Sequence record: PZ049713.1
Direction: 5' to 3' (one strand)
Source: a phage
Length of the DNA: 59,621 nucleotides
Made by a program: the position numbers and the translations under genes. This document shows, piece by piece, positions 48,860 to 52,119 of the stretch. How positions within the stretch are numbered: the first letter of the stretch is position 1; each line of letters begins with the position of its first letter. The notes beneath the pieces were generated by a model. The model ran no database searches and was not told where the DNA came from. It saw only the letters and a list, made by a program, of their open reading frames with translations.

Positions 48860-48945
48860 GCCGCAATTTCAGCATGCTTAAATTACTAGGTCAAGCAATT
48901 ACTTAAGCGCAGTGCATGCTTAAATTCAGGATGCTTAACATGTGT
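48860..48945. promoter_or_regulatory. OR region: divergent pR/pRM promoters with GCATGC-core operators
   Basis: Near-palindrome AATTTCAGCATGCTTAAATT (48866-48885); second site GCATGCTTAAATT (48914-48926); third GATGCTTAACATG; TTGACC-17-TGAAAT on the minus strand upstream of cro. Confidence 0.6.
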
Positions 48946-48948
48946 GTT

Positions 48949-49590
48949 ATGGAAAGACACGAACGCATCGCCCGCGCCATCCAGCTCAGCGGGCTAAAGA
49001 AGGGCGACATAGCCGCGAAGTGCAACGTGGCGAACTCGGCCGTCACTCAATGGCTTTCAGGCGAGAGCAAAAGCCTCAAGCCTGAAAACCTGTTTGCCTT
49101 AGCCAAGGCGACAGGCTTCAGCGCTATGTGGCTTGCTATCGAGGAAGGCCCAGAGCGCATCGAGAGCAACGTCGAGCTTGGGCCAGACATCACCAGCCCA
49201 TACCGCGAGATTCAGATCGTGGGCACTGCGCAGATGGGCACAGAGGGTTACTGGTACGCGCTGGATGAGGCGGACGGCATTGTTGAAGTGCCATCCCGCG
49301 ATCCTGGCGCCTACGCCCTGCGCCTTAAGGGGGACTCAATGGCCCCTGCGATCCGCTCTGGCTGGATTGCAGTCGTTGAGCCGAACCACCGTCTCGTTCC
49401 GCTCGAATACGTGATGATCCGACTGCATGACGGCGAGTGCATGCTCAAGGAGCTGCTTCAAGCCACCGATGAGGAAGTGGTTGTGCAGTCAGTCAACGAG
49501 CAGTTCGGGCGCCGAACCATTCCGACAGACCAGATTGAAACGATCCACTATGTCGGCCACATCGTGGCGCCTAGCAAGGTTAGGGTTTAA
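48949..49590 (+). CDS. cI: CI-type repressor (XRE HTH plus S24 LexA-like peptidase domain)
   Basis: ATG at 48949 (MERHERIARAIQLSGLKKGDIAAK...); C-terminal ...LRLKGDSMAP...; no SD upstream, possibly leaderless; ORF-track 48916 start lies within operator sites. Confidence 0.8.
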   Translation: MERHERIARAIQLSGLKKGDIAAKCNVANSAVTQWLSGESKSLKPENLFALAKATGFSAMWLAIEEGPERIESNVELGPDITSPYREIQIVGTAQMGTEGYWYALDEADGIVEVPSRDPGAYALRLKGDSMAPAIRSGWIAVVEPNHRLVPLEYVMIRLHDGECMLKELLQATDEEVVVQSVNEQFGRRTIPTDQIETIHYVGHIVAPSKVRV

Positions 49591-49619
49591 GGGTGCGTTG
49601 AGTTGAGCGAGCAGGGATA

Positions 49620-50330
49620 GTGCGGCACAGCGATTGGATTGTCTTCGTAGATGAAAGCGGAGATCACAGCCTAGAATCGATTGACGATGCGTACCCAGTG
49701 TTCGTGCTGACTTTCTGCGTGATCAGCAAAGACGAATACCTGCAGAAGCTAGTGCCCCGAGTGAAGCGCCTAAAGTTCGACCTGTTTGGGCACGATAAGG
49801 TCATCCTTCACGAATCTGAGATAAACCGGAAGAAGGGCGCATTCTCTCGCATGCCGAAAGAGGATCGGGATTCGCTGATGGTCACGCTTGGAGCAATCGT
49901 TGCCGAGACACACTTTCAAATCTTCGCGATCATCATCGACAAGATTCAACACAAGCGGCGCTATTCAAAGCCTGCCCACCCATACCATCTAGCCATGCAG
50001 CTCGGGCTTGAACGCATATATGGCTTCTTGCGTAGCAAAGGACAATGCGAGCGGGACACGCACTTCATCTTTGAGGCGCGAGGAAACAAGGAGGACCTTG
50101 ACCTTGAGCTGGCCTTTAGGCGAGTTTGCGACGGAGATAATTTCGCTGGAGCTACCTACCCGTTTCAAATCGTAATTGCGGACAAAAAGACTAACTGCGA
50201 AGGCTTGCAGGTCGCCGACCTTACAGCTCGTCCAATCGGACTATCTGTGCTGAGGCCGGAACAAGAAAATCGAGCGTATGAGATTCTGCGGAAGAAGATG
50301 AATCGGTACGGAAGAAAGATCTTCCCGTAG
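49620..50330 (+). CDS. DUF3800-like protein (FVDESGD N-terminal motif), cI-co-transcribed accessory gene
   Basis: 236 aa from GTG 49620, 30 nt after the cI stop; N-terminal WIVFVDESGDH; AT-richer than flanking phage genes; strong terminator downstream. Confidence 0.55.
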   Translation: MRHSDWIVFVDESGDHSLESIDDAYPVFVLTFCVISKDEYLQKLVPRVKRLKFDLFGHDKVILHESEINRKKGAFSRMPKEDRDSLMVTLGAIVAETHFQIFAIIIDKIQHKRRYSKPAHPYHLAMQLGLERIYGFLRSKGQCERDTHFIFEARGNKEDLDLELAFRRVCDGDNFAGATYPFQIVIADKKTNCEGLQVADLTARPIGLSVLRPEQENRAYEILRKKMNRYGRKIFP

Positions 50331-50496
50331 CCCAGAAAGCGAAAAGCCCCTGAGACAAGTCCCAAGGGCTTAGCGCCGGCCGCGTAGTCGCAACCCATTT
50401 ATCGAAATTCTATTGCGAAACCTACCCCGGCCTTCACCGGATCAATCTCGCAATCCAACTATAGGACAACCTTTATCCGAATGCAATCGGACACCA

Positions 50497-50523
50497 AGCC
50501 CCGCACCACGCGGGGCTTTTTGT
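50497..50523 (+). terminator. Intrinsic terminator
   Basis: AGCCCCGC-accac-GCGGGGCT followed by TTTTT. Confidence 0.7.
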
Positions 50524-50653
50524 GTCTGCACCACCCTCCCCTACTTAGGTCTGAGCAACTTCTTTACATGTGGCAACCGGCCACCATGTTTCCTCTTGCC
50601 CGGTGAAACCCTCACAATTACTGTGTGGATATCCAGCATTAAGGAGGGCCACA

Positions 50654-50911
50654 ATGAATCGGATGCAACCTCACGCCATCACCCACCACTGCCAAGCATC
50701 GACCTATAGCCGCTTGGTGCGCCGGGTAAATCTAGCGCTGACGGCGCCAACAGCGCAGCGCGAACGCCAAGCCAATCTCAGGCCAGGCCCGGATGATCGC
50801 CCCGAAGACTGGGAGCGCCTTCTTGAGGAAATCGAACAGGCCGACAACGTGACCATGCGACGACGACCAGACGGAAGCGTCCATGTGATCTGGCGGTGCG
50901 CAAGCTGCTAG
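50654..50911 (+). CDS. Small hypothetical protein in immunity-region cassette
   Basis: 85 aa from ATG 50654, 7 nt after AAGGAGG; ORF-track frame 50570-50911. Confidence 0.5.
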   Translation: MNRMQPHAITHHCQASTYSRLVRRVNLALTAPTAQRERQANLRPGPDDRPEDWERLLEEIEQADNVTMRRRPDGSVHVIWRCASC

Positions 50912-50996
50912 CTGCATGCTTGCATTTCATGTTTGACATGCTTGCTTAGCGGTGGCCAAATGCAAGCACATAAAACTGTGCGAGGATTTTGCAAGC

Positions 50997-52010
50997 ATGA
51001 GCGAGCCAACCGGAAAGGCCAAAGGAGGAGTCGCGCGCGCCCATGCGCTAACGGCTGACGAGAGGAAGGATATCGCCAAGAAGGCTGCGGAGGCCCGTTG
51101 GGCTGCGCCAAAGGCGTTATACGTCGGAGAGCTGTCTATCGGGGAGCTAACCATCGATTGCGCAGTGCTGCCAGACGGCACGCGAGTGCTCTCGCAACGC
51201 GGAGTCGGTCGGGCGCTTGGCCGCAGCTATGGTGGCAAAGACTTCCGCGTCTCCGGCGACGAAGATGCCGGTGGGAAACTACCCTTTTTCATGAATGCAA
51301 ACACCCTAAAACCCTTTATTTCCAGTGAGTTAGCGGCGCTGGTCTCAAAGCCAATTCCGTATCGACACGAGCAAGGCGGCGGCGTGGCGCACGGTATAAG
51401 TGCAAGCGCCCTTCCCCAGATATGCGAAGTTTGGCTCAAGGCAAGGGAGGCTGGCGGGCTTACCAAGGTTCAGCTACCAATGGCGGCAAAGGCCGAAATA
51501 ATCATGCGCGGCCTGGCGCACATTGGCATCACCGCGCTTGTCGATGAAGCGACCGGTTACCAAGAGGTCCGCGACAAGCAGGCGCTCCAGGCGATCCTTG
51601 ACCAGTACCTGCGCAAGGAGCTGGCTGCATGGGCTAAGCGGTTTCCAGACGAATTCTATGCTCAGATGTTCAGGCTGAAAGGTTGGCAGCGAAAAGACCT
51701 AAGCTCGCCTTCACGGCGCCCAGGTGCTGCTGGGATGTACACCAATGATCTGGTCTACGAGCGGCTGGCTCCGAACATCCTTGCAGAGCTGGAGGCTCGC
51801 AACCCAAAGGACGCTAAAGGCAATAGGAGAGGCAAGCACCACCAGCTTCTAACCGATGACGTAGGGCACCCGGCGCTAGCGCAGCACTTGCACGCACTGA
51901 TCGCTCTAATGCGCGCCTCGCCTTCCTGGGACCAGTTCATGCTTATGGTCAACACAGCCTTCCCAAAAAAGAACGACACCCTGCTGCTGGACTTGCAGCC
52001 CTGCGACTAG
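50997..52010 (+). CDS. P63C-like phage-associated protein with N-terminal KGG...ARW basic motif
   Basis: 337 aa from ATG 50997 (GAGGA SD); N-terminal ...KAKGGVARAHALTADERKDIAKKAAEARW...; family assignment from recall, not verified. Confidence 0.45.
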   Translation: MSEPTGKAKGGVARAHALTADERKDIAKKAAEARWAAPKALYVGELSIGELTIDCAVLPDGTRVLSQRGVGRALGRSYGGKDFRVSGDEDAGGKLPFFMNANTLKPFISSELAALVSKPIPYRHEQGGGVAHGISASALPQICEVWLKAREAGGLTKVQLPMAAKAEIIMRGLAHIGITALVDEATGYQEVRDKQALQAILDQYLRKELAAWAKRFPDEFYAQMFRLKGWQRKDLSSPSRRPGAAGMYTNDLVYERLAPNILAELEARNPKDAKGNRRGKHHQLLTDDVGHPALAQHLHALIALMRASPSWDQFMLMVNTAFPKKNDTLLLDLQPCD

Positions 52011-52031
52011 TTGCGGGAACACTGAAACTAT

Positions 52032-52057
52032 AGCCCGCCACTGAGCGGGCTTTTTCT
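52032..52057 (+). terminator. Intrinsic terminator closing the cI-side operon
   Basis: AGCCCGC-cactga-GCGGGCT followed by TTTTTCTT. Confidence 0.7.
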
Positions 52058-52090
52058 TGCCTGCGAATTTCAGCAAGCTTAAAAAAAGAC

Positions 52091-52119
52091 TTGACCGATA
52101 AATTCAGCATGCTTAAATT
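52091..52119 (+). promoter_or_regulatory. pL-like promoter with overlapping OL operator
   Basis: TTGACC (52091-52096), 17-nt spacer, TAAATT (52114-52119); operator AAATTCAGCATGCTTAAATT overlaps the -10; degenerate site TTTCAGCAAGCTTAAAAA upstream. Confidence 0.55.

Follow-up and report, generated by a model that had tools for sequence, protein, structure and literature searches.

Gene layout and predicted operators of the immunity region

The DNA analysed here, referred to as the window, is the whole stretch of 59,621 nucleotides (59.6 kb) in the phage sequence record PZ049713.1, and the system in question is the region between positions 48146 and 52119, in which a cro gene and a cI repressor gene are divergently arranged. 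This region very likely represents a lambda-type lysis/lysogeny immunity switch of a lambdoid temperate phage with a host among the Pseudomonadaceae, with a right and a left operator region (OR and OL) and a cI gene predicted to be expressed from a leaderless messenger RNA (mRNA). A lambda-like divergent cro/cI switch had already been proposed in an earlier note on this DNA, and the proposal is borne out by the gene content, by operators that are kept in 11 relatives of the same immunity and by the fact that heteroimmune relatives have the module replaced.

The control region between the two genes comprises 110 bp and separates a small Cro from a repressor of the helix-turn-helix plus S24 type. 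The cro gene (48656..48838, minus strand) is predicted to encode a protein of 60 amino acids that belongs to the P22 Cro type according to Pfam (P22_Cro, E=2.9e-19) and to its similarity to the P22 Cro structure 1rzs in the PDB (E=3e-9). The product of cI (48949..49590, plus strand) has 213 amino acids, an N-terminal HTH_3 domain (PF01381) and a C-terminal S24 domain (PF00717), and is a member of PHROG 4. Furthermore, a gene putatively encoding a cII-type establishment activator (48146..48568, minus strand; Pfam PF06892 Phage_CP76, E=1.3e-30; PHROG 101, “CII-like transcriptional activator”) was detected downstream of cro, as is characteristic of the members of the lambdoid switch type. A cII-dependent establishment promoter was not identified, no systematic search for a cII target promoter having been made. 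With increasing position, the genes on the minus strand are those of a DnaB-like helicase, a DnaC-like loader, an O-like protein, a small regulator of PHROG 7732, cII and cro, followed by OR. The helicase and the loader were named by reading their translations, which contain Walker A motifs. On the plus strand OR is followed by cI, a DUF3800 gene, the terminator t1, a DUF1654 gene, a P63C gene, the terminator t2 and finally OL, whose promoter pL would fire rightward.

The putative operators were recognised as copies of a 20-bp near-palindrome, which is present in OR as AATTTCAGCATGCTTAAATT at 48865-48884 and in OL as AAATTCAGCATGCTTAAATT at 52100-52119. The earlier note had given the correct sequence for the copy in OR with coordinates that are off by one (48866-48885), and the correct position for the copy in OL, which it took for identical while it differs by one mismatch (AAATT...). 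The repeats it listed are real, but the inventory was incomplete, as it missed two further full-length copies at 48922-48941 (AAATTCAGGATGCTTAACAT) and 52066-52085 (AATTTCAGCAAGCTTAAAAA). The number of matches to the 20-mer with at most three mismatches that is expected by chance is 0.00, and none occurred in any of 100 shuffles; the core TTMAG-N4-CTKAA has four matches in the 59.6 kb compared to 0.03 expected. When the window was scored with a position weight matrix (PWM) built from the sites, the four sites reached 25.6-34.2 bits and the next best of the ~59,600 positions 6.9 bits. This fifth-best position (52511-52530, AACATCAGCGTTTTGAATTT) falls on the beginning of the first pL gene and is probably due to chance.

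The strongest operator is O_R1 (48865..48884; AATTTCAG-CATG-CTTAAATT; 34.2 bits), which covers the spacer and the -10 element of the putative promoter pR. In OL the corresponding position over the spacer and the -10 element of pL is taken by O_L1 (52100..52119; AAATTCAG-CATG-CTTAAATT; 32.6 bits), so that the operators overlap the -10 elements of both early promoters, as had been claimed. O_L2 (52066..52085; AATTTCAG-CAAG-CTTAAAAA; 28.7 bits) is separated by 5 bp from the pL -35 element downstream of it, and an O_R3-like site (48922..48941; AAATTCAG-GATG-CTTAACAT; 25.6 bits) covers the spacer and the -10 element of the candidate cI promoter. The recognition site of the cI repressor is thus predicted to be a pseudo-palindrome of ~20 bp with the half-sites TTCAG and CTTAA 4 bp apart. 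The “GCATGC core” that the earlier note regarded as the recognition element had to be abandoned, since the centre of the sites is variable (CATG, GATG, CAAG, CAAA or CATA) while the symmetric half-sites TTCAG/CTTAA are invariant.

Both outward promoters have the structure TTGACC-17-(TGAAAT/TAAATT), as previously read from the sequence. In the case of pL (52091..52119, plus strand) TTGACC (52091-52096) and TAAATT (52114-52119) are separated by 17 nt and match the consensus in 9 of 12 positions, and pL was the sole consensus promoter reported by the promoter scan. The candidate pR (48866..48894, minus strand) was found by reading; it consists of the -35 element TTGACC (48894..48889), a 17-nt spacer and the -10 element TGAAAT (48871..48866), which is extended by a preceding TGn (TGc-TGAAAT, 48874..48866, TGCTGAAAT). 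An equivalent pR, TTGACT-17-TGcTGAAAT, is carried by an Azomonas prophage (72% identical). Transcripts from pR are predicted to have a leader of ~21 nt, and the Shine-Dalgarno (SD) motif of cro, GAGG (48849..48846), is located 7 nt before its ATG.

A set of relatives with the same immunity was obtained from IMG/VR and comprises the ten loci L007-L016, whose cI proteins are 86-100% identical, plus L044 at 82%. The motif scan of these relatives, which the earlier note had suggested, revealed two plus two operators at fixed positions in 11/11: each locus carries exactly two OR sites, whose offsets relative to the cI ATG are -84 and -27, and an OL pair with a spacing of 34 bp (33 bp in L013). Between cI and OL the relatives have 1044 to 2431 bp and the window 3117 bp. 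Among the nine unique sequences, the segment 48911-48954 including the O_R3-like site is invariant, whereas 29-35% of the cI coding columns are variable. The -35 and -10 elements of pR are invariant as well, and the variable bases of its spacer lie outside the operator; variable positions in OR are found in the stretch between O_R1 and the pR -35 element as well as at 48898-48900, 48903 and 48910. The more distant Azomonas type also possesses a counterpart of O_R1 at -84, and its operator (GATTTCAG-CATA-CTGAAATT) keeps TTCAG...CTGAA. The predicted recognition helix of the repressor, VANSAVTQW, is invariant, the Azomonas type included.

The heteroimmune relatives L024-26, PS-1/L001 and L018/19 share t2 and the pL leader with the window. 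Exactly the segment from O_L2 to the -10 element is replaced in them, e.g. by TTGCAA-17-TAATGT and palindromes of the TACAA/TTGTA kind, after which homology sets in again at 52121. The C-domain is common to their repressors and that of the window, the N-domains are different. Judged from these alignments, the exchange of operator and N-domain between conserved flanks is the classical signature of an immunity module.

Two alternative explanations concern the repeats themselves. They might be chance products of low-complexity, AT-rich promoter sequence to which no specific protein binds, and it is true that the sites stand out as AT-rich from the GC-rich genome and share bases with -10 elements. 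However, chance would account for only 0.00-0.03 matches, the sites stay constant precisely where the neighbouring bases vary, and they are exchanged en bloc along with the DNA-binding domain of the repressor. The chance explanation is effectively refuted and its remaining probability is negligible. The other explanation extends the set of operators: in the earlier note the motif at 50913-50945 was counted as an internal operator of the switch, and such a third cI-binding region, similar to O_D of TP901-1 or to an extra lambda-type operator, might control the P63C gene or mediate looping. The copy at 50914-50926 (GCATGCTTGCATT) does match GCATGCTTAAATT, a 13-mer within OR, at 11 of 13 positions, and the best PWM score found there is within the top 0.04% of the window positions. 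This score is nevertheless only -0.3 bits (best position in 50890-51000, which has no match to the TTMAG-N4-CTKAA core) compared to at least 25.6 bits for the real sites, and the repeat unit is a different palindrome, ATGCWWGCAT, which occurs four times (50916-25, 50938-47, 50960-69 and 50989-98; spacing 22, 22 and 29 bp). TTGACA (50933-38) is located between the first and the second box, and the last box covers the ATG of the P63C gene (coding sequence 50997-52010, plus strand; Pfam P63C, E=1e-30; SD motif GAGGA). Moreover, the whole P63C cassette (50894..52016) is missing from 10/10 same-immunity relatives, and it is considered an insertion because homology stops at 50893 and resumes at 52017 in all ten of them. 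The boxes instead accompany P63C in TACAA-type and other immunities: the ten P63C loci compared (homologs 80-100% identical; L031 re-samples the L023 contig) all possess four (A)TGCWWGCA(T) copies, TTGACA, an SD motif and a last box on the ATG, with no cI-type operator within +/-2.5 kb, and L024-26 carry a different OL. A third cI-binding region is therefore very unlikely. By its sequence and distribution the motif at 50913-45 is the regulatory repeat of the P63C cassette itself, separate from the switch, and the boxes most plausibly mark the autoregulation of a self-contained P63C moron. This corrects an over-reading, as the motif only resembles the operators and is part of an independent mobile gene cassette within the region.

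The candidate cI promoter, the predicted start of cI and the architecture of OR

The candidate promoter of cI, pRM (48913..48949, plus strand), consists of the -35 element TGCATG (48913-18), a spacer of 17 nt, the -10 element TAACAT (48936-41) and the discriminator GTGTGTT. TAACAT ends 7 nt before the cI ATG at 48949, and the base preceding the A of this codon is a pyrimidine. No SD motif was found within -4..-16 of the ATG, so the earlier note was correct both in that the start codon lacks an SD motif and in that it directly follows TAACAT at 48936-48941. Most likely, the maintenance mRNA of cI starts at A48949 of the AUG and would be translated as a leaderless message.

This assumption is backed by the comparison of 26 distinct types of cI upstream regions, which were collected by a profile search of IMG/VR and whose start codons were chosen by homology only. 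A -10-like hexamer, defined by A2, T6 and a match of at least 4/6, ends 6 nt before the ATG in 7/26 types and 7 nt before it in 13/26 types, hence in 20/26 at a gap of 6-7 nt. In one type the gap is 8 nt, and gaps of 0-5 or 9-20 nt do not occur. In 5000 composition-preserving shuffles the mean number of hexamers at gap 6-7 was 1.25 and the maximum 6. SD motifs are absent in 24/26 types, and many types carry TTGCAA exactly 17-18 bp further upstream. The arrangement reads TAGTAT-7 nt-ATG with a completely different discriminator in the Azomonas type and TAGAAT-7 nt or TATCGT-7 nt in other immunity types. In lambda, used as positive control, TAGATT precedes the cI ATG by 6 nt, and in phi24B/933W the annotated cI ATG is preceded by TAGTAT at 7 nt. 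The leaderless cI considered possible in the earlier note is thus supported across the family, and the comparison suggests that, within one repressor family, leaderless repressor mRNAs are the rule in at least 20 immunity types. This would extend the lambda paradigm. The S24 C-domain motif GTAQMGTEGYW is conserved in this Pseudomonadaceae repressor family. It is conceivable, though not likely, that the cI promoter and start codon form a fixed leaderless chassis of -10 element, 6-7-nt discriminator and AUG on which N-domains and operators would be swapped as cassettes.

An alternative pRM, TTACTT (48899-904)-16-TAAATT (48921-26), which would yield a leader of 15 nt, was rejected, as TTACTT is not conserved in the same-immunity relatives and the resulting leader disagrees with the family-wide signal at the gap of 6-7 nt.

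The distance between O_R1 and O_R3 is 57 bp without any full site in between; a tripartite arrangement, in which three full operators would follow one another at intervals of 23-24 bp, was not found. The space between the two sites contains a weak central element (48900..48926) composed of the half-sites TTAAG (48903-07) and CTTAA (48919-23), which are 11 bp apart instead of 4. It can be read in two registers, either as 48900-48919, with its centre at -39.5 and a PWM score below 0, or as 48907-48926, with 2.0 bits at 48907 and containing the exact 13-mer GCATGCTTAAATT. The partial operator copy that the earlier note placed at 48914-48926 corresponds to this 13-mer; its sequence is exact, while it amounts to just a half-site within the weak element. 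In the register 48900-48919 the good half-site is located 5 bp upstream of the pR -35 element and 35 bp from O_R1, mirroring O_L2 and pL (5 and 34 bp), and the degenerate half falls on the weak -35 element of pRM. It seems plausible, with about even chances, that the central element acts as a weak, cooperativity-dependent OR2, its predicted operator function being deduced from the half-sites and their position.

For both the start of cI and the architecture of OR a different explanation has to be taken into account. The cI gene might not be leaderless but translated from a leadered mRNA, originating from an upstream or cII-dependent promoter, and start at ATG 48940 with the sequence MCV-MERHE..., i.e. 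three residues longer. The window has three in-frame ATGs upstream of the cI start (48916, 48931 and 48940), which were not mentioned in the earlier note, and the list of open reading frames (ORFs) extends the frame to 48916. The motif AGGA (48928-48931), located 8 nt before the in-frame ATG 48940, could be used by a leadered transcript, and L044 shows an equal AGGA/ATG arrangement. The conservation of AGGA and ATG 48940 is uninformative because both are embedded in O_R3, so that the operator explains it. The Azomonas homolog shares the N-terminus MERHERIA with the window but has no counterparts of its three nearby upstream ATGs: no in-frame ATG occurs in the 30 nt before its start (those present are at distances of 33, 51 and 96 nt) and no SD motif within ~30 nt, yet the -10-like hexamer is present 7 nt upstream. 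Considering also the position of the hexamer and the lack of SD motifs in the family, the leadered start appears improbable for cI, although it could hold for establishment transcripts alongside a leaderless maintenance transcript. A more serious contender is a bipartite OR in which 48900-48926 is only the -35 region of pRM and cI is a purely negative autoregulator without OR2-type activation; we consider its chances to be somewhat short of even. It is consistent with the low PWM score of the central element (at most 2.0 bits) and with the number of matches to TTMAG-N11-CTKAA, which at one versus 0.11 expected is not significant alone. Furthermore, L044 has GTATAC in place of GCATGC, and many heteroimmune members of the family possess a strong TTGCAA -35 element and would need no activator. 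On the other hand, the half-sites and their 5-bp distance from the pR -35 element mirror O_L2 and pL (35 versus 34 bp), the central arrangement is common to three diverged subtypes, i.e. the window type, L044 and the Azomonas type, despite their differing spacer sequences, and the very poor pRM -35 element is typical of activated promoters. A split OR2 element, in which TTAAG and CTTAA are 11 bp apart and on opposite helix faces, combined with the leaderless cI chassis, would be an undescribed switch geometry, but this appears unlikely. If true, one half would serve the pR side like O_L2, with the second half lying across the pRM -35 element and O_R3, and the paired sites would be one helical turn further apart than those of lambda.

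Several observations weigh against the interpretation of the region as a lambda-type switch with a leaderless cI. Apart from the AGGA motif 8 nt before ATG 48940, these are the pRM -35 element TGCATG with 2/6 consensus matches, the G at position 2 of the pR -10 element, because of which pR was skipped by the scan, and the fact that the generic scan reported neither pRM nor pR. OR contains only two strong sites, 57 bp apart, with a central element of at most 2 bits, which makes OR2-dependent activation in the manner of lambda a conjecture. An OL could not be detected in the Azomonas prophage over a distance of 4.6 kb, and the cI linker contains neither an Ala-Gly nor a Cys-Gly scissile bond, i.e. 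no canonical cleavage site.

Regarding self-cleavage of the repressor, Ser130 (in GDSM) and Lys167 are invariant in the repressor family. This dyad would imply RecA-stimulated self-cleavage and therefore SOS induction. At the expected cleavage site the family has the invariant GTAQMG (cI residues 92-97, window 49225-49240), which aligns with EAILG of phi24B/933W. The 933W repressor is reported to cleave at a non-canonical Leu-Gly, which by analogy would predict cleavage between Met96 and Gly97 in the present repressor. A phmmer search of the PDB sequences with cI gave no match at E<=0.01.

Taken as a lambda-type switch with a leaderless cI, the region would presumably function as follows. In the lysogen, cI bound to O_R1 and O_L1 (and O_L2) would block pR and pL, the repressor on the spacer and the -10 element of O_R1/O_L1 excluding the RNA polymerase. 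The genes driven by pR would be cro, cII and the replication genes. The leaderless cI mRNA would originate from pRM and may continue into DUF3800. Filling of O_R3 by excess cI or by the P22-type Cro would turn pRM off, while cleavage of cI involving S130 and K167 would lead to SOS induction. In lambda, cI bound at OR2 activates PRM from a position overlapping the -35 element. The degenerate element at the mirror position in OR overlaps the weak pRM -35 element and would be the place for such an activation. Cooperative binding and bistability of the switch are likewise predicted.

Accessory genes, the pL leader and other features of the window

The immunity region contains two cargo slots, one between cI and t1 (49591-50492) and one between DUF1654 and t2 (50894-52016). 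In the window the first slot is occupied by the DUF3800 gene (49620..50330, plus strand; Pfam PF12686, E=5e-17), which starts 30 nt after cI and among the relatives is present only in L007 and L012. The second slot holds P63C in the window. The intrinsic terminator t1 (50496..50518, plus strand) has a 9-bp stem with 7 GC pairs and a T-run. The DUF1654 gene (50654..50911, plus strand; Pfam PF07867, E=1.4e-17) is homologous in nearly all relatives and in most of them is located directly upstream of OL, which characterises it as a conserved member of the immunity region. The second intrinsic terminator t2 (52032..52051, plus strand) would close the immunity transcript just before OL and is kept even in the heteroimmune relatives. 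The minimal relatives L008, L009 and L014 consist of cI, DUF1654, a terminator and OL only. Since they lack a terminator between cI and DUF1654, the latter is probably co-transcribed with cI in these relatives. Searches of PADLOC and NCBIfam gave no match for DUF3800, DUF1654 or P63C, and the literature on P63C and DUF1654 yielded only irrelevant matches. In the P. aeruginosa phage JBD68 a DUF3800 homolog directly follows jbd68_44, annotated as a hypothetical protein.

A second immunity type is represented by L024-L026, L001 and L023 and has TACAA-N7-TTGTA-type palindromes. In its OL the right half of the upstream operator doubles as -35 element (TTACAA-N7-TTGCAA), and the sites are ~21-22 bp apart, a tighter and lambda-like spacing compared to the 34 bp of the window type.

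The non-coding pL leader (52126..52507, plus strand; ~380 nt) adjoins the switch and is not part of it; the first gene starts at 52508. The leader contains two hairpins, both of which show one compensatory pair, at 52150-63 (GAGA loop) and at 52164-75, followed by an rrn-type boxA (TGCTCTTTA, 52179-87), which is the only exact copy in the window. An invariant block of 54 nt (52251-52304) includes a CGTGGCT/AGCCACG hairpin, and folding of the leader gave a z of -3.2. Possibly the leader serves in antitermination, with hairpins preceding boxA, or forms a structured RNA. An ORF at 52253-52504 (83 codons, KRRLRQ) was rejected as a candidate for an N-like protein, as its frame is interrupted in most relatives. 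Neither a nutR-like boxA after cro nor an N-like gene was found, and Rfam gave no match in the OR, OL or pL leader regions. Further downstream, in the early-left operon, the Rfam small RNA motif Proteo-phage-1 (RF03044) was detected at 54390-54469 (plus strand) with 70 bits compared to a gathering score of 42.

Elsewhere in the window two tyrosine recombinase (Phage_integrase) ORFs were detected at 1413-2405 (minus strand) and 12471-13652 (plus strand), the second of them with an Arm-DNA-binding domain, as well as a gene for a beta-helix tailspike-like protein at 16125-18182 (minus strand). The window is ~8-10 kb longer than related viral contigs of 48-52 kb and may thus contain additional DNA, DNA from the host or a second element.

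Comparison with known immunity switches

The type of switch is already known, its operator specificity is new and the spacing of its sites is somewhat unusual. It opens no new biological question. Its value lies in a testable operator and promoter map for an uncharacterised group of temperate phages of Pseudomonas, Stutzerimonas and Azomonas, which is useful for the annotation of prophages, the prediction of immunity groups and the design of orthogonal repressor/operator parts.

The region resembles lambda in the order cro-OR-cI-(accessory genes)-OL-PL with cII after cro, in operators that are common to OR and OL and overlap PR, PL and PRM, and in the S24 C-domain of the repressor. The position of O_R3 (-27..-8) is close to that of lambda OR3 (-27..-11), and the -10 hexamer likewise lies 6-7 nt before the cI ATG; the PRM mRNA of lambda cI is leaderless (PMC10491246). 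In contrast to lambda, the half-sites are TTCAG-N4-CTTAA, and the repressor is too weakly similar for any match in the PDB. Each locus has two strong sites, and the paired sites flank the -35 element at a distance of 34-35 bp instead of the 24 bp in lambda. The equivalent of OR2 is degenerate and centred at -39.5 as opposed to -42 for lambda OR2, and the place of rexAB is taken by DUF3800, DUF1654 and P63C as accessory genes.

The closest experimentally studied homolog of cI is the repressor of 933W/phi24B (31% identity over the full length, E=3e-30). These phages share with the window type a -10-like hexamer 7 nt before the cI ATG (TAGTAT in phi24B/933W) and a non-canonical sequence in the cleavage-site region (EAILG versus TAQMG), and 933W has only two OL sites and no OL3 (PMC5977221). 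Differences concern the sequence and spacing of the operators, the three annotated adjacent OR sites of 933W with OR3 overlapping the start of cI, and the hosts, which belong to another family. The similarity to P22 is limited to Cro, which belongs to Pfam P22_Cro and matches 1rzs, whereas its partner repressor is not c2-like and the operators show no relationship to the P22 operators.

Leaderless repressor mRNAs have been described for PY54 cI/cro and for PaaR2 of a cryptic O157 prophage, where rapid amplification of cDNA ends showed that the mRNA begins at the AUG (PMC4488713, PMC8630535). Both systems consist of a divergent pair of repressor and cro-like genes with a short intergenic region, as does the region described here. 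Their 5' ends were mapped while that of the present cI is predicted, and PY54 cro is leaderless, whereas the cro gene of the window has an SD motif and presumably a leader of ~21 nt.

In the phage collection searched, the closest sequenced phage is the Pseudomonas phage PS-1 (NC_029066). It has in common with the window the C-domain of cI (58% for the protein as a whole), the DUF1654 gene, the terminator and the pL leader. PS-1 is, however, heteroimmune, with another repressor N-domain and operators of the TACAA/TTGTA type, and it carries neither DUF3800 nor the P63C cassette.

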